Positions 6,528-48,275 of a stretch of DNA of 64,000 bases are shown here, piece by piece. This DNA comes from Terriglobia bacterium (GTDB lineage: Bacteria > Acidobacteriota > Terriglobia > Bryobacterales > Bryobacteraceae), in contig CAWBAE010000003.1 in NCBI GenBank assembly GCA_963786745.1, forward strand, positions 106,082 to 170,081. The letters are read 5' to 3'. The notes below the pieces were generated by a model. The model had not been told where the DNA came from. It worked only from the letters and a program-made list of their open reading frames with translations, and did no database searches. Numbering within the stretch: position 1 is the stretch's first letter; every line of letters begins with the position of its first letter. The translations under genes were made by a program, and so were the position numbers.

Positions 6528-7719
6528 ATGAAAATTGACACCAAGGTAGTGCACGCCGGCGATCGAAAAGGCGATCCGAACTCGCCCGGCGCGTTCGTTC
6601 CAGTCACCGTGCCCATCTCCACCGCGGTCAGCTATTTGTACGAAAGCACCGCCAAGCTGGACCGCGTGCTGGGCCAGGAGGAAGAAGGCTTCTGCTACGC
6701 CCGTTACAGCAACCCCACCAACGCCGCGCTCGAGCAGGTATTGGCAACGCTCGAAAACGGCGCGGGAGCACTGGCCTGCGCCTCCGGAATGTCTGCCGTG
6801 CACATCGCCATACTCGCGGCTCTCACGGACCGCCGACGATCCATCGTCGCTGCCAGCGCGCTCTACGGCGCCAACACGACGCTGCTCTACAAAGTCCTCG
6901 AGCCGCTCGGCATAGAAATCCGTTCCGTGGATATTTGTGATCTCAATCAAGTCCGGCAAGCCATCGCCGAATCGAAGCCCGGTTGCGTGCTGATGGAAAC
7001 TATCTCGAATCCGCTGCTGCGCGTAGGCGCGCTGGACCAGATAGCCGAAGCTTCGCGGGCCGCCGGCGCGGCGCTGGTGGTGGACAATACCTTCGCGACA
7101 CCCATGCTGGTGCGGCCGACTCGAGCTCGGAGCGCACCTGGTGGTGCACAGCCTCACCAAGTTCCTGGCCGGGCATGGCGACGTCTTGGGCGGCGTAGTG
7201 ATCGCGGATGCGGAACACGAGCCCAGCGTCCGGTCACTCAGCCGCACGGTGGGGCCGCTGCTCGGCCCGTTTGAGAGCTACTTGACCATGCGCGGCATCA
7301 AGACCTTCGCTCTAAGAATGGAGCGCCAGTGCGCGAACGCCTGCCGTATCGCCGCCTGGCTCCGCTCGCATCCGGCCATCGCGCGGGTTCATTACCTGGC
7401 CGACCCGGCGCATCCGGACGCGGCGGTCATCCGGCGGCTGCTCCCGGAGGGCTTGCACGGGGCCATCGTCAGCTTCGAATTAAAGGACGCCGGCAAGGAA
7501 GATGTTTTCCGTTTCATGGACCGGCTGAAACTGGTGGTGCGCGGAACATCGCTCGGCGACGTCCACACGCTGATGTTGTACCCGCTCATCTCGTCGCATC
7601 GCGACCTCGCCCCGAAGCAACGTGAGCGCCTGGGCATCGGCGACGGTTTAGTGCGGTTGTGCGCGGGCATCGAGGCGGCCGAGGATATCATTGCCGATCT
7701 TGAACAGGCCTTGCAGTAA
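6528..7719 (+). pseudogene. Cys/Met-metabolism PLP-dependent enzyme (cystathionine gamma-synthase/gamma-lyase/methionine gamma-lyase family), interrupted by one +1 frameshift near 7119-7120
   Basis: ORF 6528..7274 carries ...YSNPTN...DNTFATPMLVRP. ORF 7141..7719 continues in the +1 frame with (LELGAH)LVVHSLTKFLAGHGD (PLP-lysine motif SxTK). Deleting one base in ccg-a-ctc restores RPLELGAHLVVHSLTK. Confidence 0.85.
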
Positions 7720-7740: not shown

Positions 7741-9210
7741 GTGACTCTGAAGTTCTCCGCCGTTGTTTTGATCGCGGCCTGCCATGTTGCCGCCGCGACC
7801 GTTTCGCTGGGCAGCGCCGCCGTCTCGGTATTCGGCGCGCGCGGCCCGGACACGGAGACGCCACCTGCCTATGTAACCAACCCCGGCGCATTCGGATTCT
7901 CGATCACCGACGGCTCGACCGTGCTGTCCGGCCAGGAGCGTCGCAATACGGATCCGGCCGGCGGGCCCAATCTGGCTCTCGAATCCATGGGTTCTTTCGA
8001 CGGCCGCGAGATAACGATTGCCGGAACCATCAACACGCTGATTGTGGCGGACGCGGAAGGCGACTCCGGCGGACACTCCCAGGCCTTCGGGATCGGACTC
8101 TGCACGGTCGGCTGGCGCAACCAGGCGGCCGCCACATACAATCTGAATCTGTTCGAGACGCAACCCCAGCCGTCGCCCGACGGTTTCGCCGGAATCGCGT
8201 TCGGATTTCGCAATGGATCGCTGTACATGGTGGCTTATGACTATGACAGCCAGCCCAACCAGATTTTCGTAAACCTCGGAAACGCCGGCCTGGCTTCCGG
8301 GCAGGCCTTGACCCAGCCGCTCAAGTTTACTCTGGCGTATGCGAACAACTCACTAGCAGTTACTCTGAACGGCGTTCCCTATGGGTCCGTGCCCACTTCC
8401 CACGACTTCTCGAACGCGCTGCTCGTCGCCATGGGAGCCAGCGTGGATGCCGCCAATGGGACCGGGGCGATGGCGTATATGGACCTGGCCGCCAAGCAAG
8501 GCCCGCCGGAAATCACCGGCGTGGTGAACGGAGCCAGCTTCCTTCCGGGAATCGCCGCGGGAAGCTGGGCCACGGTGCTCGGAACCAATCTGGCGTCCTC
8601 CGTGAAAGTTGCGGGCTCAGGCGATTTCAACGGCAATTTTCTCGGTACCGAGCTCAACCAGACCTCCGTCACAGTGGACGGCTTACCCGCTTTCGTCTAC
8701 TATGTCAGCGCGAACCAGATCAACATAATCGTCCCCGATGACCCCAACATCGGCACGGCAAACGTGCAGGTGACCACGTCCGTGGGCGCCAGCAACACCT
8801 ACCAAGCCGGCAAAATGAGCCTCGCGCCCGCGCTGTTTTTGTTCAGCGGCGTTTATCCCGCCGCGGTTCATTCGAACGGGACCTATCTCGGTCCGCCAAA
8901 CATCATTCCCAACGTGGTTACTCAGCCCGCCAAGCCGAACGAGACCATTCTGCTGTTCGGTACCGGCTTCGGCCCCACCACTCCAGTGGTTCCAGCCGGG
9001 TCTCTGGATCCCAATACCGCGCCCTTGCAGCTGGCCGTCACGGCCACCGTGGGTGGCCTGCCCGCAAAGGTGGAAGGCTGGATGACCGCCGTGGGGCTTT
9101 ATCAACTCAATCTGACCGTGCCTAACCTTCCGGACGGGGATGCCTCGCTGGTGATCGACGTGGGGGGCGCCTCGACGCAGCCTGGCCTGCTGCTTTCGAT
9201 CGCCCAGTGA
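7741..9210 (+). CDS. Secreted protein with Solibacter-type C-terminal IPT/TIG-like domain (TIGR03437-like)
   Basis: The ORF opens at 7726 (TTG). GTG at 7741 is preceded by GGAAGGA. Signal peptide present. C-terminal half: ITGVVNGASF...SANQINIIVPDD...GLYQLNLTVPNLPDGD, the pattern of the uncharacterised Solibacter C-terminal domain. Confidence 0.75.
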   Translation: MTLKFSAVVLIAACHVAAATVSLGSAAVSVFGARGPDTETPPAYVTNPGAFGFSITDGSTVLSGQERRNTDPAGGPNLALESMGSFDGREITIAGTINTLIVADAEGDSGGHSQAFGIGLCTVGWRNQAAATYNLNLFETQPQPSPDGFAGIAFGFRNGSLYMVAYDYDSQPNQIFVNLGNAGLASGQALTQPLKFTLAYANNSLAVTLNGVPYGSVPTSHDFSNALLVAMGASVDAANGTGAMAYMDLAAKQGPPEITGVVNGASFLPGIAAGSWATVLGTNLASSVKVAGSGDFNGNFLGTELNQTSVTVDGLPAFVYYVSANQINIIVPDDPNIGTANVQVTTSVGASNTYQAGKMSLAPALFLFSGVYPAAVHSNGTYLGPPNIIPNVVTQPAKPNETILLFGTGFGPTTPVVPAGSLDPNTAPLQLAVTATVGGLPAKVEGWMTAVGLYQLNLTVPNLPDGDASLVIDVGGASTQPGLLLSIAQ

Positions 9211-9231
9211 TTATCCGGCCAAGCTTGCCGA

Positions 9232-10290
9232 TTACTGCCCGCTCGACTGGATTTGCACCAAAGGCTCGGGACCTTCCGAGGGCACGGGGCTGACGATGGT
9301 CTGCGGATCGCGCCAGAAATCGACATACGAGATCTGGTGCACGCACGATACGGTGCAAAACGGAGCGCAGCCTTTCGCGGTCACATACTCGCGGCGAATA
9401 TCTTGGACGTTGTATTCGGCCAGCGCCTTGGCCGGATAGCCGCGCTGCTGCGAGCAGTAGTGAACCAGCCCGTCCTCGCACACATACAGATAGCGCGCGC
9501 CCGCGCGGCAGCGCCAGTCACTCGCGCGGCCGTAAGCGATATCGTCCTGAAAATAATTGATCTGCGAGAAATTCTTCTTCTCGAAATTCTTCATCGCCAG
9601 GAACACGTCCCGCTCCCGGTTGCCGATCGGTTTCAGTTGCCCGCCGCTGTCGTGAATGATTCCGACTGTCGAGGTGAACCCCAGCTCGATGGCCCGCTTG
9701 CCAACCACCAAAGCGTCCTCGGGATTATGAATTCCGCCGCCCAGCACCGAGTTGATATTGACGTGGAAGAGCGCGTGCTCCGACAGGATCTCGAGCTTCT
9801 TGTCGAGCACCTTGAGGCTTTTTTTCGACACCTCGTCCGGCATCACGTTGTCGATGCTGATCTGCATGTGATCCAGGCCCGCGTCGTTCAACTGGCGGAC
9901 GCGTTGCGCCGTGAGAAGATATCCGTTGGTGATCATCCCGGCCAGGATGCCCTTGCCGCGGACGTGCGTAATCAGCCGGTCGAGCTCCGGATGCAGCAGC
10001 GGCTCGCCGCCGCTGAAAGTCACGATGGTGGTGCCGAGCGCGGCCAATTGATCCAGCCGCTCCCTCATCACATCGGCCGGGACGGGTTTGGAGAAATCGT
10101 CGTATTCGTTGCAATAGGTGCACGACAGGTTGCAGCGCCGGATGGGAATGATGTGCGCCATCACCGGGTGATCCCTGGAAGCCAAACCTTTCAGGATCAT
10201 GCGCCACTCGCGCAGGCGGCGATTCAAAGCCCGGACGTCTCGTTGAAATTTGAATTGGAACGTCAGCATGCCCAGAGCAGTTATCTCCAT
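9232..10290 (-). CDS. Radical SAM protein with a Cys-rich SPASM/twitch-like C-terminal region
   Basis: 352 aa. CNLSCTYCNEY (CxxxCxxC) and a GGEPLL glycine motif. C-terminal cysteines: CRAGARYLYVCEDGLVHYC...CAPFCTVSC. Confidence 0.85.
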   Translation of the reverse strand: MEITALGMLTFQFKFQRDVRALNRRLREWRMILKGLASRDHPVMAHIIPIRRCNLSCTYCNEYDDFSKPVPADVMRERLDQLAALGTTIVTFSGGEPLLHPELDRLITHVRGKGILAGMITNGYLLTAQRVRQLNDAGLDHMQISIDNVMPDEVSKKSLKVLDKKLEILSEHALFHVNINSVLGGGIHNPEDALVVGKRAIELGFTSTVGIIHDSGGQLKPIGNRERDVFLAMKNFEKKNFSQINYFQDDIAYGRASDWRCRAGARYLYVCEDGLVHYCSQQRGYPAKALAEYNVQDIRREYVTAKGCAPFCTVSCVHQISYVDFWRDPQTIVSPVPSEGPEPLVQIQSSGQ

Positions 10291-40572: not shown

Positions 40573-42948
40573 ATGCCCGACAAACCCGTTGTATACACGC
40601 TGCCATTGCTGCCTCTGAAGAATGCGGTGCTGTTTCCGTATCTGATGATGCCGCTTTCGGCCGGGCGGGCGGCCTCGATGGCCGCGGTGGAGGCTGCGCT
40701 GGCCTCTGAATCCAAGGAAATCGTAGTGTTTGCACAGCGCGACGCGAACGTCGAAAATCCCACCCAGGACGATCTTTATCCGATCGGCACCAAGGCGGTG
40801 ATCCGCAAGACCAACCGCGCGGCCGAGGGCCACATTGAAATGCTGGTGCTGGGAATGGAGCGGGTGACGCTGCTCAAGACAGACGGGTCCGAGCCGTTCC
40901 TGAAGGCCCGAGTCACTCCCCTGCCCCTGCCCGAAGACAAGAGCGCGGAGATCGAGGCGCTGCAAGGCGCGCTGATCGAATTGGCCGGCGAAGCCCTGAC
41001 ATTGGCCCAACCCAACTCCGGGCAAGAATTGCGGGGACTGCTTTCGGCCAACGAAGATCCGGTGCGGCTGACGTTTGTGCTTTCGTCCATGTTCAGCTTG
41101 GATGCCGAAAAAGCGCAGTCACTGCTCGAGGCGCCCACGCGTCTGGAAGCTCTGCGGATCATGCATCGATATCTGTCGCATGAGGTCCAGGTGCTGGAAC
41201 TGCGCAACAAGATCAACACCGAAGCGCGCAGCGAAATGACCAAGGAGCAGCACGACTATCTGCTGCGCCAGCAAATGCGAGCCATTCAACAAGAGCTGGG
41301 CGAGAAGGGGGCTGAGGGCGCGGAAGCCGATCAGCTGCGCGAACGGCTGCAGAAGGCGGACCTTCCCGAGGAAGTTTTGAAGGAAGCCACGCGCGAATTG
41401 GACCGGATGGCCAAGATGCCTCCCGGAGCGCCGGACTACAACGTCATCCGGACCTATCTCGACTACGTGCTGGAGTTGCCGTGGCGCAAGAGCACCGAGG
41501 GTTCGCTCGACATCGCTTACGCCCGGCAGGTGCTGGATGAAGACCATTTCGGGCTGAAGGACGTGAAGGGCCGGATCCTGGAGCAACTGGGCGTTCTGAA
41601 ATTGAACCCCAATGCGAAGGCGCCCATCCTTTGCTTCGTCGGACCTCCCGGCGTGGGCAAGACTTCGCTGGGCCAGTCCATTGCGCGGGCGCTGAACCGC
41701 AAGTTCGAGCGTTTGAGCCTGGGCGGGTTACATGACGAAGCCGAATTGCGCGGGCATCGCCGGACTTATATCGGGGCGCTGCCGGGCCGGGTGCTGCAGG
41801 CTATGCGGCGCGCCGGCACCAACAATCCAGTGCTGATGCTGGACGAAGTGGACAAACTCGGCCACGATTTCCGGGGCGACCCGGCGCACGCTTTGCTCGA
41901 GATCCTGGATCCGGAGCAGAACAAAACGTTCCGCGACAATTATCTCGACTTGCCGTTCGATCTGTCGAAGGTGCTATTCATCACGACCGCGAACGCGCTG
42001 GATACTATTCCGAGGCCGCTGCTGGATCGCATGGAGGTTCTGCGGCTGGCGGGCTATAGCGAAGAAGAAAAACTCGCGATCGCGAAACGCTATCTCATTC
42101 CGAAACAGCTCAAGGAAACCGGGGTTAGCGAGGCGCAGTGCACGCTCCCGGACGCGACGGTGAAGAAAATCATATCCGGGTATACGCGTGAAGCCGGCTT
42201 GAGGGGCCTCGATCGGGCCATTGGCCGCGTGGCGCGAAAAGTTGCGCTGCGCGTGGCGGAGGGTAACGAGGGCGCTTGCACCGTTGCGCCCGACGATCTG
42301 GCCGACATGCTGGGGCCGGAAATCTTCAATCAAGAAGAAGCCCGGCGCGAGTTGCCTCCGGGCGTCGCCACGGGATTGGCTTGGACCGAAACCGGCGGAG
42401 ACGTGCTCTATATCGAGGCGACGCTGCTGCCGGACGGCAAGGGTTTGACGCTGACCGGCCAGCTCGGCGAGGTGATGCAGGAGTCCGCGAAGGCGGCACA
42501 GAGCTACATCTGGTCCCACGCTGGGAGCTTCGACATCGACCCGAAGCTGTTCAAGAGCGCCGGCGTGCACGTGCACGTTCCTGCGGGCGCGATCCCGAAG
42601 GACGGACCTTCGGCCGGAGTGACCATGGCGACGGCTTTAACGTCGCTCTATACCAAGCTTCCGGCGCGCAGCGACGTCGCGATGACGGGCGAAGTGACGC
42701 TCACCGGCCTGGTGCTGCCCATCGGCGGCATCAAGGAGAAAGTTCTGGCGGCGCGGCGCGCCGGAATCCGGACCATCATCATGCCGAAGCACAACCAAAA
42801 AGACCTGCGTGAGTTGCCCGACGACGTCCGCAAGGAGATGGAATTCATCTTCGCCGAGCGCGTCGAAGAGGTGCTGCGCACGGCGATTCCGGGATTGGGC
42901 GAGCGCATGAACTCGGCCAAGACGCAGTCGATTGATCACGCGGCTTAA
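40573..42948 (+). CDS. lon: ATP-dependent endopeptidase Lon
   Basis: 791 aa. LON N-domain, GPPGVGKTS Walker A, and the protease site [11 protein letters not shown]. Confidence 0.97.
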
Positions 42949-43340
42949 AGCCGTATATAAGTTACGAGGGCCGCGGCCGCGAGCCGGCGTTCGGAATCGC
43001 GGATCTCGACGCGGCCCACGCACAGATGTTCTCCCACTCGCAGGATGTGGGATCGCGCGGTTGCGATGCCATCCGTAATCGGGCGCAGGTAATTGATCTT
43101 GAGGTCGGTGGTGGTCACGGGACGCCGGCCTCCGAAATGGCTGGCCAGGCCGATGCCCATGGCGGCGTCGGCCATGGTCGCGAGCACTCCTCCGTGTATC
43201 CCTCCCGAGCCGTTCTTCGTTTTTTCATCCACAGCGCAGCGAATGGTGACGCCGTCTTTGTGTACGCGCATAATCCGGATGCCGAGGTACTTATTGAAGG
43301 GCAGGTTGCCGGAAAGCCGGCGCAGTTCGCGAAGGGTCAA
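42945..43340 (-). CDS. PaaI-family hotdog-fold thioesterase
   Basis: 131 aa. NGSGGIHGGVLATMADAAMG motif of the PaaI/YdiI family. Confidence 0.85.
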   Translation of the reverse strand: MTLRELRRLSGNLPFNKYLGIRIMRVHKDGVTIRCAVDEKTKNGSGGIHGGVLATMADAAMGIGLASHFGGRRPVTTTDLKINYLRPITDGIATARSHILRVGEHLCVGRVEIRDSERRLAAAALVTYIRL

Positions 43341-43365
43341 GGAACGATAATTGTATCATCGAGGG

Positions 43366-44100
43366 GTGAAGCGATTAAGTTTCTTCGCTGTGCTCGCGCT
43401 TGGACTCAATGGACAAGACCAAAGCTCGCCGGAGAACTTCGTCCGAATGCATCAGGCGTGGGGCTCCAAAGCAAGTACGCCAAACACTTCGTTGGTTATC
43501 AAGGAATCCGAACGATCGGGCCAGGCGATCAAATTCAGGTTGATTGCCAGCGGCGTGCCCAAGGACAGCGCGTACACGATTCTGGCGTGGCCGGTTACGC
43601 AGAAGGGACCGAGCGAGGTTTTGAAGGGCGTGACCTTGGACGCCTCCGGCCTGGCAATATGCGCCGGCGTGCCGGGAACCTGCGGTTCAGCGGACAAGCC
43701 CAACGATCCGATCGACCTAGTCTTGGCACCTATCCCGGGTGAGCCTGTCCGGATCGCCCTTATTTCGGCGGATGGAGCAACAAAGGTCTTCTCTAAATTG
43801 GTCCCTATTCCTTTGAGCGGTGATGACCGAGGCTGCCGGATTGAAGCGACCCTGTTGACCCCCGGCGCTGAGCTGGTCCTGATCGAAGGCTCGGGTTTCC
43901 CACCCAATAGCGATGTGTCGATGGAATCCGAGTCGGAAGGCGAGCATCACAGTGGAAAGGCCAAGACCGATGTAGACGGCCGATACGCAAGCGCTATTCT
44001 CCCGTATCGACAAGGCGTTGCGCACGGCAGTGCAAAGGTCAATCTGAAGGCAGCCAAATGTGCGCCATCGCTGACCTTCGCGTGGGGCCGGCGCAACTAG
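43366..44100 (+). CDS. Secreted hypothetical protein
   Basis: The ORF opens at 43351 (TTG). GTG at 43366 gives VKRLSFFAVLALGLNG, a signal peptide. No recognisable domain. Confidence 0.55.
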   Translation: MKRLSFFAVLALGLNGQDQSSPENFVRMHQAWGSKASTPNTSLVIKESERSGQAIKFRLIASGVPKDSAYTILAWPVTQKGPSEVLKGVTLDASGLAICAGVPGTCGSADKPNDPIDLVLAPIPGEPVRIALISADGATKVFSKLVPIPLSGDDRGCRIEATLLTPGAELVLIEGSGFPPNSDVSMESESEGEHHSGKAKTDVDGRYASAILPYRQGVAHGSAKVNLKAAKCAPSLTFAWGRRN

Positions 44101-44112
44101 ACGCGCGTGGTA

Positions 44113-45711
44113 TTATTTCACGGCGATTAACGCTCCGGGGGGCGTACTCGAGCCCGCGTAGGTGCAGGTCACCAGGTTGTCGCCGCTGGGCGCCGCTGTC
44201 GGGACGACCACGTTCAGCTGATAGAGCCCCGGCGATATCAAATTCGCGCTGGATACCGTCGCCGCCAACGTTCCGATGGTACACACCGGAGTCGGCACAA
44301 TGGCGCCTGTTTGCGTGACAGATCCATTCACCAGCGCGTTCGAGGGCAGCCCGAAGCCGATCGCGTAAAGCAAAATCGTCTCGCCGGCTTGAGCGGGCGC
44401 TGAGCTTCCTGGAAAAAGAGTGGCGGGGGCCAGCAGACTGTAATCGGCGTGCTCCGCTGCCACGTGCCCGGGCCCATCAAATAATAGGAACGACGGCGAC
44501 ACGGCCTGCATGTTCACGGTGAGAGGCGCGCTCGAAACCGAGCCGTTCGTGACCACGACTTCGACCAGGCCGACCGTGCTGTCAAGGGGAGTGAGCAAAT
44601 TGATCTGATCGCTGGCGCAAGACGTACTAGTGACGGCGCTGCAAAAAAACCAGATGAAGGCCGGCTTGCCGTTGACAGTGACGCTGACGTTGTTCAGCGA
44701 GGTGGGTAAATGGCCCTGCGCCAACGCGGGAGAGCTGCTCCAGAAAGCGCCGCCCGCGGGAGTGTTGGCGGGCACAAGGTTAGCGCCAAAGATTTCGAGC
44801 CACGTGTTCTGCGCGATGGAAGATGGGCCGTAAGCGGTGGTGACCGCGGTGATTAACGGAGACCCGGCTGCCGGCTGGGTAATAGTGCCTGTGCCGGTGA
44901 GCGTGAACGTGCTGGCACCGGGGCTGACCGCCAGGGTGATGGCCAGTGAACCGCCGGCTCCGGTGAACATCCCCGTGCCCCCAGTAATCGTGCAAGGAAA
45001 ATTGACCGGCGGGTTGTTGATGTCCACCACGGAGAAAAAGGAAGCCACGAAGCTATCGTTGGCGTTGAAGGAGAACGTCACTTCACCTTGCACCATGCCG
45101 GGCGCGCCGTTAACGCCCTTTTGCCCGATACCGCTGAAATTTATCGCTACGTTTCCAAACGGAGCCACGGTACCGGTGGAGCTGGCTTGCAATGTGCCGC
45201 TCCCGGCGCTGGCTACGGACGCCGTGCCTCGAAAGCCGGTCAGGGTGATGGCCGTGCTGGTTTGGCCCACCGTGATGTTTCCCGAACCGCTCAACGTGAA
45301 AGTCCCGACACTGGAGGCGCTGGCCGCAAACTGGAACTTATAAGTGATCGATCCGGTGGCTCCGCTGTATGCTCCCGTGCCTCCAGCGATCGGCCCGGAC
45401 GAATTGAGCGTGGTCATTTTGCCGATTGCTTGAGGCGTTACGGTAACGTTGAAGCTATCTTGCCGGTTGAGGAAGAACGTCAAAACGCCCTGCGTCACGC
45501 CGGTCTGCTGGCTCTGTGAACCGCTGAAGCTAACGGCCGCGGTTCCGATTGGGTTTACGGTTCCGGTTCCGTTGAGCGTGACCGGTCTAACGACCGTCTG
45601 TGTCGCAACCATACCGGTAACGTTGGCAACGGTGATGGGCGTCGTGGTCTGCGCGAAAGCAGCCGATATTGCGAATAGCGCGGCGGCAAACCGGACGGCG
45701 AAGGGGTTCAT
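44113..45711 (-). CDS. Secreted repeat protein with Solibacter-type C-terminal domain (TIGR03437-like)
   Basis: Likely start MNPFAVRFAAALFAISAAFA at 45711; the ORF extension to 45807 is probably spurious. The C-terminus SDQINLLTPLD...GLYQLNVVVPTAAPSGDN matches the pattern seen in the 7741..9210 product. Confidence 0.8.
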   Translation of the reverse strand: MNPFAVRFAAALFAISAAFAQTTTPITVANVTGMVATQTVVRPVTLNGTGTVNPIGTAAVSFSGSQSQQTGVTQGVLTFFLNRQDSFNVTVTPQAIGKMTTLNSSGPIAGGTGAYSGATGSITYKFQFAASASSVGTFTLSGSGNITVGQTSTAITLTGFRGTASVASAGSGTLQASSTGTVAPFGNVAINFSGIGQKGVNGAPGMVQGEVTFSFNANDSFVASFFSVVDINNPPVNFPCTITGGTGMFTGAGGSLAITLAVSPGASTFTLTGTGTITQPAAGSPLITAVTTAYGPSSIAQNTWLEIFGANLVPANTPAGGAFWSSSPALAQGHLPTSLNNVSVTVNGKPAFIWFFCSAVTSTSCASDQINLLTPLDSTVGLVEVVVTNGSVSSAPLTVNMQAVSPSFLLFDGPGHVAAEHADYSLLAPATLFPGSSAPAQAGETILLYAIGFGLPSNALVNGSVTQTGAIVPTPVCTIGTLAATVSSANLISPGLYQLNVVVPTAAPSGDNLVTCTYAGSSTPPGALIAVK

Positions 45712-45722
45712 ATGTCTAGCAG

Positions 45723-45779
45723 GGATTGTATCATCGAGGAATGCATCTACAGGACAAGGTGGTAGTGGTGACCGGGGGC
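45723..45779 (+). repeat. Left copy of a perfect 57-bp direct repeat (duplicated SDR 5' end)
   Basis: ggattgtatcatcgaggaatgcatctacaggacaaggtggtagtggtgaccgggggc is identical to 47484..47540. Confidence 0.95.
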
Positions 45780-45806
45780 TGACGCTGGCGAGGGGACAAA
45801 GGGCCA

Positions 45807-46214
45807 ATGGCTTCTGACAAATATGATCCTGACCAATGGGCTTTCATGAATCTACCTGCGACGCAGGAGAAGATTCGCCGCGACTTGCGTAGTGCCGTTG
45901 AACGTTTCCTTGATACGGCACCCGCGGGATCCGTCCTCTTCCGTACGTCGATAATCCTCGGAATCCTGCGGGACTATTTCCGGCGTCGGCTTGCACGTAA
46001 GGATTCTGATGCTTACGACAAGGCCACGGCCGAAGAGGTACTCGCCGGATTGAGCTTCGCCGGTACGCGGATAAGAGCGGACGAAGATGTTGAAAAGTGG
46101 CTCGCGGAAATAATGGCGGCTCCTCCCATAACGGATGAGGAGTTCGAAACACGGTTGAAGGAGTGGGAGGCATTAGACGCGCGGCTGAAGACGGAGGGCA
46201 AAAAGGCCACGTAA
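45807..46214 (+). CDS. Hypothetical 135-aa acidic/helical protein, first gene of the cassette
   Basis: Only long ORF in this interval. No recognisable motif. Begins 25 nt after the left repeat. Confidence 0.5.
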   Translation: MASDKYDPDQWAFMNLPATQEKIRRDLRSAVERFLDTAPAGSVLFRTSIILGILRDYFRRRLARKDSDAYDKATAEEVLAGLSFAGTRIRADEDVEKWLAEIMAAPPITDEEFETRLKEWEALDARLKTEGKKAT

Positions 46215-46314
46215 GAGAAGCCTTGTCTGGCAGGAGGATTTGCGAACGAGGTTATCGAGACGCCGCAACCGGTGCCACTCAGCGTGGTGGTTAGGGCGAT
46301 GTCAGTCTTAAGTC

Positions 46315-47388
46315 ATGGACATGAGAACCGTATACGTCCTCGGAGCGGGCGCCTCTCATGGCGAGTCTTTAGTTGGGCAGTACCCGGATGCACGACCACA
46401 CAGTCCGCCTTTAACCACCGGATTCTTCGACGGTGCGCTGCTGAGTACGCTCGGATACACGCGAGCGCAGGACGATCTCAAAGATCTCATTTCTCATATC
46501 AAGAGCACCAAGCTTTGGGGGGATGCTTTCGGCGAAGACCGGTGGAAGTCCCTCGATCTTGAAGAAGTGTTCACTTCCCTCGAGGTGGAGCGAGAGTTTC
46601 AGAACCCGGAGAGCGATGATGGAGCCCGCCTCTTGCTACTGCGGAATTCGCTGGTTCGCCACATCCGTCGCGTTCTCGGGCTCTGCACGTTGGGAGCCCT
46701 CGGCGAGTATTTCCATTTGCTCGCCGATCGGCTTACGCCTGACGATTCCGTTGTGACCTTCAATTGGGACCTCCTGATGGACCAAGAGTTCATTCACCAG
46801 GGAAGGGCCTTCCGCCAATACAACAACTTCCTGCACCGGGTTCCCTTGCCGCCCTCCGAGAACTGCTTGTCCCTGGTCATCCAGGGTGAGGGGCTATTCC
46901 TGAAGCTTCACGGCTCCCTGAATTGGTTTCGCTGTGGCAACCACAGCTGCCAGGCCAGCGAAACGATCACCTTCTTCTCCAACCCTCGGCATTGCCTCGA
47001 ATGGAACGCGGGCACCGAAAACGCGACGTGTTGGCAGTGCGGAAGCGTGCTGAACCAAGTAATAATTCCACCGCTTCTTCGCAAGCCGATAACGGAGGAT
47101 CCAATTATCCGCTCCGTTTGGGGCCTAGCCAAGGAGAGGCTGATGGACGCGTCGAGGGTAATCGTGGTGGGTTTCTCGGCTGCGCCGACAGACTTCTATA
47201 CAACCTGGCTTTTAAGATCTACAGTCGGAACGCGAGACAACGTTGCGGTTGAAATAATCAACCCGTGTAATGAAGAGGGCCATTCGGGCCACGCCGAGTT
47301 CAAGAGACGCATGGATTCAATTTTCCCGCGGGGATACGGCTCTCGGCTCCTGCAGTTCTCGCAAATCACCGACGCCCTCGGCAGCTAA
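46315..47388 (+). CDS. SIR2/sirtuin-like (DHS-like NAD-binding fold) protein
   Basis: 357 aa. VYVLGAGASHGES (NAD-binding GAGxS), VVTFNWDLLMDQ (the TxNxD position of sirtuins/SIR2_2), FLKLHGSLNWFRCGNHSC...CWQCG (catalytic-His motif followed by a CxxxxC...CxxC Zn-ribbon-like pair), VIVVGFSAAPTD (the GxS strand). Confidence 0.7.
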   Translation: MDMRTVYVLGAGASHGESLVGQYPDARPHSPPLTTGFFDGALLSTLGYTRAQDDLKDLISHIKSTKLWGDAFGEDRWKSLDLEEVFTSLEVEREFQNPESDDGARLLLLRNSLVRHIRRVLGLCTLGALGEYFHLLADRLTPDDSVVTFNWDLLMDQEFIHQGRAFRQYNNFLHRVPLPPSENCLSLVIQGEGLFLKLHGSLNWFRCGNHSCQASETITFFSNPRHCLEWNAGTENATCWQCGSVLNQVIIPPLLRKPITEDPIIRSVWGLAKERLMDASRVIVVGFSAAPTDFYTTWLLRSTVGTRDNVAVEIINPCNEEGHSGHAEFKRRMDSIFPRGYGSRLLQFSQITDALGS

Positions 47389-47483
47389 ATAGTGGGTTCT
47401 AACGGTTAGGCTCAGGAAACATCATCACCCTTACGTCGCGGATAGTCCGTGCCTTCAAAGCGACAACCGGGCGTGACTGATAA

Positions 47484-47540
47484 GGATTGTATCATCGAGG
47501 AATGCATCTACAGGACAAGGTGGTAGTGGTGACCGGGGGC
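47484..47540 (+). repeat. Right copy of the perfect 57-bp direct repeat (native SDR promoter-proximal region and first 13 codons)
   Basis: Identical to 45723..45779. Contains the SDR ATG (47502). Confidence 0.95.
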
Positions 47541-48275
47541 GCGAACGGAATTGGCCGGGCGCTGTGCCGGCGATTCGCGTCAGAGGGCGCGAAAGCGGTG
47601 ATCGTGGCCGATCTCGCAGGCGACGCGGCGCGCAAGGTGGCGGCGGAGATCGAGGGACACGACGTAATGTGCGACGTATCCAGCGAATCGGATGTGCAGG
47701 CGCTGGTGGATTTCGTCTTGAAAAAGTACGGGCACATCGACCTGTTCTGTTCGAATGCCGGCATCGCGATCCATGGCGATCAGTGCGTCGAGAATCGGGA
47801 CTGGCAGCGTATCTGGGAGATCAACGTGATGGCCCATATTTACGCCGCTCGCGCCGTTCTGCCATCCATGCTGGCGCGCGGCCATGGTTATCTGTTGCAG
47901 ACCGTCTCGGCGGCTGGGCTCCTGACTTCCATCGGAGGCGCACCCTACGCCGTCACGAAACACGCGGCGCTCGGATTCGCCGAATGGCTTTCGGTCACCT
48001 ACGGCGACCGAGGCATCAAGGTGTCGGTGCTTTGTCCGCAAGGCGTCAAGACCAGCATGCTGGAGAGAGCCGACGCGGATGGCTTAGGCTTTTTGACCGA
48101 AGGCGCGCTGGAGCCCGGACAAGTGGCCGAGACCGTGGTACGAGGCCTGGAACATGAGCACTTCCTGATTCTTCCGCACCCCGAAGTGCTCGATTACCTG
48201 CGGCGCAAGACCGCCGACTATGACCGCTGGTTGCGAGGCATGCGTCGTTTGCAAGCCAGCATGCAGAACTCGTAA
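47502..48275 (+). CDS. Short-chain dehydrogenase/reductase (classical SDR)
   Basis: [20 protein letters not shown] (TGxxxGxG), NAG, YAVTKHA (YxxxK). The ORF track opens it at TTG 47487, but ATG 47502 is more plausible. Confidence 0.9.

Follow-up and report, generated by a model that had tools for sequence, protein, structure and literature searches.

Does a short gene pair in a Terriglobia genome form a dedicated two-component defence or toxin-antitoxin module, or does it join one self-sufficient enzyme to a gene that travels with it? The pair lies in a 64,000-nt stretch of contig CAWBAE010000003.1 (hereafter the window) and comprises an open reading frame (ORF) for a protein of 135 amino acids (aa), p135, followed by one for a protein of 357 aa, p357. 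An earlier reading of the DNA letters, here called the original prediction, had described p357 as a compact SIR2/sirtuin-like protein and p135 as its candidate partner. Both ORFs lie where that prediction placed them, and both are real genes rather than chance ORFs, because searches found homologues for each. On balance, we interpret the locus as a recent insert with two unrelated genes, one for a self-contained SIR2 enzyme that consumes NAD+ and probably acts as an effector in conflict or defence, and p135 as a passenger.

The two genes are enclosed, exactly and with no others, by a perfect 57-bp direct repeat (Table 1). The repeated sequence is the 5' end of a host gene for a short-chain dehydrogenase/reductase (SDR), and the left copy runs into a TGA that closes a 13-codon stub. 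The GC content of the insert is 56.2%, against 60.5% for the window (SD 1.9), which puts it among the lowest 0.6% of equal-sized windows. At third codon positions it is 0.60 and 0.68 for the two insert genes and 0.75-0.78 in the flanking genes, in keeping with the lower GC that had been reported for the locus. No recombinase is encoded inside the insert. We considered an assembly artefact as the source of the repeat and rejected it. A Logan unitig of 1,764 nt (L089; 30+1704+30) maps to positions 45750-47513 with 0 mismatches, places both junctions in independent read sets and stops 30 nt inside either copy of the repeat, as expected of a k=31 graph. In addition, an NCBI contig from a second strain (L088, 98.7% identity) shows the same order of p135, p357, repeat and SDR.

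An empty site was found among 80 metagenomic loci sampled for SDR orthologues. Five of these (L092-L096) retain the synteny of SDR, acyl-CoA synthetase and CoA-transferase, with SDR orthologues of 83-69% identity, and all five lack both p135 and p357. In L092 the SDR gene abuts a divergent PaaI-type thioesterase gene and a Lon protease gene, and the thioesterase-SDR junction is uninterrupted. By blastn, 4,114 bases of the window have no counterpart in L092, which is continuous at this point, and the 23-nt junction of L092 is present at both edges of these. The core motif of the SDR 5' end occurs in three copies in the window versus 0 expected by chance. The third copy is older and partial, and next to it lies an older insertion of 2.35 kb, with a GC content (0.601) close to that of the host and two genes, neither of which has a Pfam match. 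The SDR 5' site was hit twice, first by this older two-gene insertion and then by the recent one carrying p135 and p357. The suggestion of a cassette-like insertion is borne out by the repeat, the junction reads and the empty site in L092. The orthologous loci without the p357 gene refute the other possibility raised at the time, that of a deacylase with a housekeeping role in a conserved metabolic operon.

The only promoter-like site on the plus strand uses the TATCAT of the repeat, and no terminator-like site was found within the insert. From these sequence features, each repeat copy may drive the genes 3' of it. RNA folding revealed no unusual structure in the spacer between p135 and p357 (z=-0.8) or 3' of p357 (z=+2.0). 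We also note that TATCAT (within 45729-45743 and 47490-47504) stands without Shine-Dalgarno spacing before the SDR ATG, which suggests a leaderless SDR mRNA. The motif ATTGTATCATCGAGGAATG is kept in L092, and its core GTAT(C/G)ATCGA(G/A)GAATG is also found in L094 and L095.

The AlphaFold2 model of p357 was made from an alignment of 101 sequences of its family, which also served for the conservation figures given here, and is very confident (pLDDT, for predicted local distance difference test, 95.1; predicted template modelling score, pTM, 0.93). Comparison of the model with the PDB by Foldseek gave 101 matches at E<=1e-3, with only SIR2 or sirtuin structures among those listed. The top match is the SIR2 subunit of Paenibacillus SIR2-HerA (8wld, E=1.5e-8, TM about 0.53), followed by about 100 canonical sirtuins (Hst2, Sir2-Af, SIRT2/3/5 and Sir2Tm) with E values of 1e-6 to 1e-5. 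The family profile also matches the SIR2 proteins of SIR2-HerA in sequence (8w9l, 3.6e-8; 8j4u, 2e-3), and these alignments land on the N-D motif (TFNWDLL vs TTNYDLL) and the His motif (KLHGSLNW vs KLHGSINW). The TFNWDLLMD stretch of p357 aligns with the TTNYDLL of solved antiphage SIR2 proteins, and its KLHGS with the KLHGS(I/L)NW of 8w9l and 8j4u and the LHGS of Sir2-Af1. All of the landmarks named in the original prediction are in place (GAGAS at residue 10, TFNWD at 148, KLHGS at 197, CGNHSC at 207, CWQCG at 239 and VVGFS at 284). Residues invariant in the 101 sequences are G10, G12, N150, D156, K197, H199, G200, S201, W204, C212 and C239. Membership of p357 in the SIR2 superfamily, with an intact NAD+ site in the predicted structure, is well supported, so the description of the protein as SIR2/sirtuin-like holds; cleavage of NAD+ is predicted.

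In two recent studies the SIR2 superfamily falls into two groups, sirtuins that bear zinc and deacylate proteins, and immune NADases without zinc, the sirim or SIR2_2 proteins; the zinc module is proposed there to have arisen along with the change to deacylation. We scanned 211 family members, the 101 aligned sequences and 110 distant full-length representatives, against curated models. At E<=0.01, SIR2_2 is matched by 16 of the 101 close and 33 of the 110 distant members (best about 2e-5), and the canonical Pfam SIR2 model by one and seven, respectively (best 3.6e-6). The PADLOC models of pAgo-associated SIR2 proteins are matched by 75 of the 101 (best 1e-10). Judged by sequence, the family lies nearer the SIR2_2 or sirim side. 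Bonhomme et al. give the central sheet of sirims at least seven strands and that of sirtuins exactly six (bioRxiv 10.1101/2024.09.18.613514). DSSP assigns to the p357 model six clear Rossmann-type strands (5-9, 145-148, 195-197, 245-250, 281-285 and 311-315) and short extra strands, this being a list of strands and not of sheet membership.

Set against these sirim-type motifs is a putative zinc ribbon of four cysteines (Cys4), which lies after the HG strand and before the Rossmann strand that follows. Its family pattern is C-x4-C-x(22-35)-C-x2-C, with the first Cys at His+8, and it is kept in at least 99% of the 101 aligned sequences and in 107 of the 110 distant representatives. The same authors describe the Cys4/Zn2+ tetrad as 'systematically absent' in sirims (bioRxiv 10.1101/2024.09.18.613514), and solved proteins of the SIR2_2 class are likewise reported without a zinc module (PMC12700824; PMC11820453). 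The p357 family contradicts this generalisation. It satisfies the definition of the SIR2 superfamily, yet fails a defining feature of each named subfamily. Zinc binding itself is predicted. Aligned by profile to Sir2-Af1, the family places each of its four Cys columns on a Zn ligand of the crystal structure, and the helix and G(T/Y)S strand after the module are collinear; this alignment is marginal (E about 0.035). When searched alone against the PDB, the zinc segment retrieved no sirtuins and only marginal topoisomerase I zinc ribbons, so the equivalence of the module to the canonical one rests on its position and the marginal full-profile alignment. A Pfam scan of p357 gave a weak match to Zn_Ribbon_TF. 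Another match of the family ribbon (1n5g, E=0.0067) is the zinc finger at the C-terminus of the catalytic subunit of DNA polymerase alpha; like the topoisomerase I ribbons, this is a nucleic-acid- or protein-binding module.

The zinc module raises the main rival to our interpretation, namely that p357 is a protein-directed deacylase or ADP-ribosyltransferase that modifies one particular protein of the host or of an invader, binds the peptide substrate with the module and adjacent cleft in the manner of canonical sirtuins, and is not a bulk depleter of NAD+. The Cys4 is found at the canonical position in at least 97% of family members, in register with the Sir2-Af1 ligands, and in sirtuins the tetrad is tied to acyl-lysine substrate binding (bioRxiv 10.1101/2024.09.18.613514; PMC12700824). 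The roughly 100 sirtuin structures that share the p357 fold, the distant members that match canonical Pfam SIR2, and weak collinear matches of NCBIfam CobB and deacylase models over residues 194-290 point the same way, and three members have been named 'NAD-dependent SIR2 family protein deacetylase' by JGI. However, the FGE substrate-staple motif that follows the zinc module in canonical sirtuins is absent from the family, where the consensus at that position is (L/V)I(I/V)PPLLRKP, and the N-D motif, the HG motif and the small domain fit SIR2_2 proteins much better. Nor is there a conserved neighbouring substrate gene, such as the macrodomain or GcvH-L genes of SirTM, and the p357 gene behaves as a sporadic, horizontally moving accessory rather than a conserved regulator. 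We regard protein-directed activity as a genuine possibility, though an unlikely one.

The family of p357 is large. A word-indexed search gave 274 homologues (best non-self E=7e-185), and an exhaustive profile search returned 9,641 cluster representatives at E<=1e-3, of which 4,816 were at E<=1e-10 and 318 at E<=1e-30. The best 150 of the 9,641 are single-domain proteins of about 320-400 aa, as is p357, which agrees with the original prediction that it carries no fused sensor. A stand-alone gene is the norm in this family. We fetched 80 loci from GTDB representative genomes, where more than 411 matches had been confirmed. Among their sources are Acidobacteriota, Bacteroidota, Bacillota, Actinomycetota, Omnitrophota, bacteria of the candidate phyla radiation, Nitrososphaerales, Bathyarchaeota and others, a patchy distribution over many phyla and archaea. 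When all ORFs within +/-3.5 kb were clustered, no neighbour was conserved in more than five of the 80 loci, and these five are closely related Bacillota metagenome-assembled genomes (MAGs) whose synteny is ordinary (genes for an AsnRS-type tRNA synthetase and for a bifunctional nuclease). The premise of the original prediction, taken from the established SIR2 systems, that the effector always has a sensor partner fails for this family. The family is uncharacterised, and the models of Pfam, NCBIfam and PADLOC do not catch it at threshold, so current annotation and defence-finder pipelines miss it.

Among 150 immediate neighbours of p357 homologues, 153 Pfam families were matched, many of them housekeeping. 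The defence-like matches, a minority, were GmrSD_N (three), PLDc_2 (three), ResIII (four), type II restriction endonucleases (two) and PIN (two), and some homologues adjoin GmrSD, PLD-helicase, restriction endonuclease, PIN or TIR-like genes. On these counts the association of the family with defence appears weak.

Other members of the family are also found on small repeat-bounded inserts. Repeats of 30 nt or more bracket the SIR2 gene in 5 of the 62 loci with complete flanks, compared with 2 of 243 shifted controls (Fisher p=0.0045), and repeats of 40 nt or more do so in three of the 62 and none of the 243 (p=0.008). The five loci come from unrelated taxa (Table 1). All five inserts have a GC content 4-6 points below that of their own locus, and none contains a recombinase. 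In L002 a repeat (90% identity) flanks the SIR2 gene alone and gives back to an interrupted ORF its 3' tail. A transposon with conserved termini was tried as an explanation and rejected, since the inserts of the window and of L002 have non-coding ends that fail to align with each other, and no recombinase lies inside. The repeat of L071 holds a 9-bp hairpin and could be a REP-like element rather than a target duplication. Just 3' of the SIR2 gene of L002 is a 72-aa ORF (7100-7318) that shares DG(S/T)TI(T/S)P(D/E)xIDKTVSRL with the N-terminus of the adjacent beta-lactamase-family gene (8198-9439), which suggests a pseudogenised paralogue fragment at the insertion border.

A few homologues have small genes at their 5' side. 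In two Acidobacteriota MAGs a 131-aa PIN/VapC-like gene (L004 5584-5979 and L011 5604-5999; the proteins are 73% identical to each other) ends 2-22 bp before the SIR2 homologue, and in L073 and L077 an HTH-like protein of 110-119 aa (49% identical) is encoded at the same upstream position. These look like small clade-specific upstream companions of SIR2. In L062 (5712-9461) the SIR2 homologue is preceded, with an overlap, by a 96-aa TIR-like fragment (FEYDVFLSHSAKDK...), and on the opposite strand after it are an AAA-ATPase gene (392 aa) and a 222-aa gene, a defence-island-like setting. One MAG of candidate division LCP-89 (Meg19_1012_Bin_459) encodes two paralogous family members on separate contigs (L056 and L061).

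The family of p135 is tiny, with 7 homologous clusters found by single sequence and 17 by profile, all of 60-70% identity and from Acidobacteriota-type metagenomes. The protein had been described as acidic and apparently all-helical. It is mildly acidic (pI 5.17; 26 D+E and 23 K+R, no His and no Cys), and its model is likewise all-helical, with six helices, but at low confidence (pLDDT 60). No match was found in Pfam, NCBIfam, PADLOC, PHROGs, PDB sequences or Foldseek, and no fold is assigned because the model is poor and neither Foldseek nor PDB-sequence profile searches gave anything significant. JGI labels two members of the family 'DnaJ-domain-containing protein 1', a label unsupported here.

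Co-occurrence of the two gene families was examined in both directions. No relative of p135 was detected in 81 SIR2-family loci by tblastn or six-frame profile search, and no SIR2 gene in nine loci encoding p135 homologues; the contig P0125, which also encodes a homologue, was not among the p135 loci read. The two genes occur together in one lineage only (the window and the near-identical contigs L088-L090). The nearest SIR2 homologues on long contigs (L001/L002, 75% identity) lack p135, that of L002 being bracketed by its own repeat. Pairing of p135 with p357 is a single-lineage juxtaposition, and on our reading p135 is a passenger, not a conserved SIR2 partner, dedicated sensor or antitoxin; the role proposed for it in the original prediction finds no support in co-occurrence or in shared neighbours.

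The p135 family has no conserved neighbour of its own. In three lineages (L082/L083, L086 and L087) the p135 homologue lies directly 3' of a gene for a 150-183-aa DUF6036-type nucleotidyltransferase (NTase; GGWAVRFHGY...DLDL); the two genes overlap by 4 bp in L082 and L086 and are 84 bp apart in L087. This combination may be an undescribed NTase-based toxin-antitoxin-like pair of Acidobacteriota, with PIN genes nearby. The idea that p135 always follows such an NTase was rejected, because unrelated genes lie upstream elsewhere: one for a 232-aa helical protein in L173/L174 and one for an HExxH protein in L175. No DUF6036-type NTase is present in the window or in the other p135 loci. The left repeat and the ATG of p135 are separated by 27 bp; in a comparison of these with the NTase 3' end, homology begins only at the ribosome-binding site and start codon. 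In the loci L173 (3429-5665) and L175 (1696-3372) the p135-family gene is surrounded by small toxin-antitoxin-like genes (MNT (NTP_transf_2), Uma2, SLFN_AlbA_2, DUF433 and HExxH), and PIN genes are also found near p135 homologues. Neither 'PDC-S21' nor partner proteins of DUF6036 were met in a literature search.

Could p135 and p357 nevertheless be a dedicated module, with p135 as the antitoxin to a toxic NADase or with the two as a sensor-effector defence pair? Both genes point the same way, with a spacing of 100 bp and no intervening terminator-like site, and a single repeat-bounded insert brought them in together; the pair recurs in the second strain and in several read sets. Relatives of p135 stand beside varied toxin-antitoxin-like genes (DUF6036-type NTase, PIN, HExxH, Uma2, DUF433), reminiscent of promiscuous antitoxins. 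Against this are the restriction of the pair to one lineage, with neither gene found in the loci of the other, and the SIR2 gene of L002, bracketed by repeats without p135. In addition, p135 is unmatched among known antitoxin and sensor families, and thousands of p357 family members exist without a conserved neighbour, so an enzyme of this type needs no antitoxin. We consider a two-gene module improbable, and the p135-SIR2 'system' should not be carried forward as a two-gene defence candidate. Of the mobile defence or toxin-antitoxin-like pair first envisaged, the small, low-GC mobile insertion stands and the pair does not.

Table 1. Positions of the features discussed, in window coordinates unless a locus is named
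Feature	Position	Strand	Remarks
Lon counterpart	40573-42948		Counterpart of the L092 gene
Thioesterase counterpart	42945-43340		Counterpart of the L092 gene
Third, older partial SDR 5' motif	43350-43372	.	23 nt, 2 mismatches in 19-nt core; retains ancestral thioesterase-SDR junction
Older insertion, same site	43373-45722	.	249-aa gene (+) and 532-aa signal-peptide protein gene (-); absent from L092
Left copy of 57-bp direct repeat	45723-45779	.	Duplicates SDR 5' end: 19 nt upstream and first 13 codons
Inserted segment, 1,704 bp	45780-47483	+	p135 and p357; low GC; absent from orthologous loci
p135 gene	45807-46214	+	135-aa protein, predicted all-helical, mildly acidic, without His or Cys
p357 gene	46315-47388	+	357-aa stand-alone SIR2-superfamily protein, predicted NAD+ user, Cys4 zinc ribbon
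GAGAS, residues 10-14	46342-46356	+	Phosphate-binding loop of NAD pocket; G10, G12 invariant; A11, A13, S14 at least 90% (n=101)
TFNWDLLMD, residues 148-156	46756-46782	+	SIR2 N-D motif; N150, D156 invariant; D152 in 100/101
KLHGS, residues 197-201	46903-46917	+	Catalytic-position His199 invariant
Cys4 zinc-ribbon module, residues 207-242	46933-47040	+	C207-x4-C212...C239-x2-C242; first Cys at His+8
Right copy of 57-bp repeat	47484-47540	.	Functional SDR 5' end; -10-like TATCAT ending 7 nt before ATG
SDR (Pfam adh_short)	47502-48275	+	Host gene; 5' end is the insertion target
Repeat-bounded SIR2 locus	L071 5514-7240		83-nt repeat
Repeat-bounded SIR2 locus	L014 4606-8190		60-nt repeat
Repeat-bounded SIR2 locus	L002 5898-7309		48-nt repeat
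Repeat-bounded SIR2 locus	L062 5192-7601		45-nt repeat
Repeat-bounded SIR2 locus	L057 5542-7598		34-nt repeat
NTase and p135 homologue	L082 3147-4111
NTase and p135 homologue	L086 2-831
NTase and p135 homologue	L087 170-1074

The surroundings of the insert are ordinary. The window contains 49 other plausible genes, of housekeeping type (TGT, CysRS, Lon, ClpB-like, MoxR/DUF58, Nramp, malate dehydrogenase and acyl-CoA metabolism among them), and apart from p135 the neighbours of p357 are the gene for the secreted 532-aa protein and the SDR gene. PADLOC matches to BrxL, TRIP13, pVip and an RT-protease were examined as candidate defence genes and judged, from the Pfam content of the same gene set, to be generic cross-matches; they were attributed to Lon, AAA, radical-SAM and trypsin-like housekeeping proteins, a judgement on the gene set as a whole and not gene by gene. 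The window is not a defence island. Such a setting, a housekeeping region without an associated system, would also suit two decaying remnants fixed by drift, with no role in the host, as would the lack in p135 of the C-terminal HWWD motif present in most of its relatives and of the NTase neighbour of the three other lineages. Both ORFs are nevertheless full length, with no frameshift or stop, all invariant family residues are present in p357, its predicted structure is very confident, and the arrangement is retained in a strain diverged by 1.3%. That the genes are inert cargo we think highly improbable.

Several results weigh against our interpretation of p357 as a NAD+-consuming defence effector. 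The protein itself is below threshold for every curated SIR2 model of Pfam, NCBIfam and PADLOC: it scores 13.7 bits (E=0.07) against SIR2_2 (PF13289), under the 24.5-bit gathering threshold, E=7e-4 against PADLOC Aga_SIR2, and E=0.02-0.08 against NCBIfam CobB-type models (12-14 bits against cut-offs of 243-320), and it does not match Pfam SIR2 (PF02146) at all. Of the check proposed earlier for SIR2 identity, the structural match came out positive and the thresholds of PF02146 and PF13289 were not reached. The scans of the window gene set with PADLOC and Pfam revealed no genuine defence system, and the immediate neighbours of homologues look defence-related in only some 6-7% of cases, a figure without a proper background control. 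The family is absent from 50,697 phage records, is represented on plasmids by 4 distant matches only, and has a single distant match among 2.9 million viral contigs of IMG/VR. The link of the Cys4 tetrad to protein-substrate binding in deacylating sirtuins argues for protein-directed activity over a plain NADase. Finally, the co-orientation, 100-bp spacing and lack of an intervening terminator of p135 and p357 leave room for a lineage-specific functional coupling.

With these points in mind, our preferred account of the locus, a recent insert with a self-contained NAD+-consuming enzyme and a passenger, is as follows. A foreign segment of 1.7 kb would have inserted at the SDR 5' end and duplicated 57 bp of target; the SDR gene stayed intact because of this duplication. 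The left repeat copy would then serve as the probable promoter of the incoming genes. p357, with its GAGAS loop, N150/D152/D156 and H199 intact, is predicted to bind NAD+ and cleave the nicotinamide-ribose bond as a single-gene effector, and its helical small domain and Cys4 ribbon would probably provide a built-in site for a substrate or trigger. Its biological role is most likely in genetic conflict, and defence or abortive infection is plausible. p135, a member of a tiny family found elsewhere among toxin-antitoxin-like genes, would be a passenger here.

A bolder version of this account can be put forward only tentatively, and we rate it as doubtful. The family would be a large, overlooked third SIR2 lineage, combining catalytic motifs and a small domain of sirim type with a sirtuin-type Cys4 and possibly intermediate in evolution between antiphage NADases and sirtuins that deacylate proteins; p357 would be a single-gene NAD+-depleting immune effector, and its gene a minimal cassette spread by an undescribed process that duplicates about 35-85 bp of target and restores the host gene. 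The SIR2 identity of p357 is in itself ordinary. What is of interest is a family that escapes curated models, the contradiction over zinc, and the low-GC mini-insertions bounded by repeats. Thousands of stand-alone proteins with sirim-like motifs and a Cys4 provide a natural test of the sirtuin/sirim dichotomy, since their activity (NADase, deacylase or ADP-ribosyltransferase) and the role of zinc in them would tell a module linked to protein substrates from one more ancient than has been supposed. The repeat-bounded insertions without recombinases are a separate small puzzle concerning the movement of single accessory genes.

Known systems resemble parts of this locus in different ways. The three lineages that place a p135 homologue 3' of an NTase recall HEPN-MNT, where the HEPN gene has that position; unlike HEPN, p135 has no His, and so no Rx4-6H motif, and gave no HEPN match. 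ThsA of Thoeris, DSR1/DSR2 and Avs5 share with p357 the SIR2_2-type N and H catalytic residues, which there serve NAD+ depletion, but they have SLOG, large sensor or STAND domains or need ThsB, and p357 has none of these, being a single domain without the SLOG or Macro domain of ThsA and without a C-terminal sensor of about 1,000 aa as in DSR1/DSR2; no ThsB-type TIR partner is present in the window. Among curated defence models, that of the pAgo-associated SIR2 proteins (SPARSA; PADLOC Aga_SIR2) is the one most often matched by the family. In contrast to SPARSA, p357 has neither an APAZ fusion nor a pAgo neighbour, and the SIR2 domain accounts for all 357 aa.

Canonical sirtuins (Sir2-Af1/Af2, Sir2Tm/CobB, Hst2, SIRT2/3/5) share the fold and a Cys4 right after the catalytic His. 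They differ in the first knuckle, which is C-x4-C in p357 and not C-x2-C, and in the FGE motif, which p357 lacks; the N-terminal two-thirds of p357 are not recognised by canonical models. In the p357 family the helical insertion (residues about 15-145) is also much larger, and the genomic behaviour is sporadic and mobile. The best match in both structure and sequence profile is the SIR2 protein of SIR2-HerA (8W9L/8WLD from Paenibacillus, 8J4U/8SU9 from E. coli), which has a similar size (about 350-415 aa), a helical small domain, TxN(Y/W)DLL and KLHGS(I/L)NW. Identity to it is about 15%, and the p357 family adds the Cys4 ribbon; no HerA lies beside p357, nor is HerA among the recurring PADLOC or Pfam neighbour families of its homologues, none of which turns up in more than 5 of 150 neighbours.

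In architecture the closest parallels are AbiH, a single-gene abortive infection protein, and vertebrate FAM118B/SIRanc, which like p357 have about 350 aa and consist essentially of a SIR2-like domain with no fused sensor. AbiH (PF14253) did not match p357 at E<=1 and was not among the families matched by the 211 members at E<=0.01, and FAM118 and other sirims lack the zinc tetrad of the p357 family. The sirims of bacteria are NADases, and defence systems are 12-fold enriched in their neighbourhoods (bioRxiv 10.1101/2024.09.18.613514). Filament formation controls FAM118B, a weak NADase (PMC12700824; bioRxiv 10.1101/2024.09.18.613514), compact stand-alone SIR2_2 proteins of its kind act via multimerisation (PMC12700824), and the SIR2 protein of SIR2-HerA assembles into auto-inhibited dodecamers (PMC11472057). 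By analogy with FAM118B or the SIR2 dodecamer, p357 may likewise be controlled by oligomerisation.

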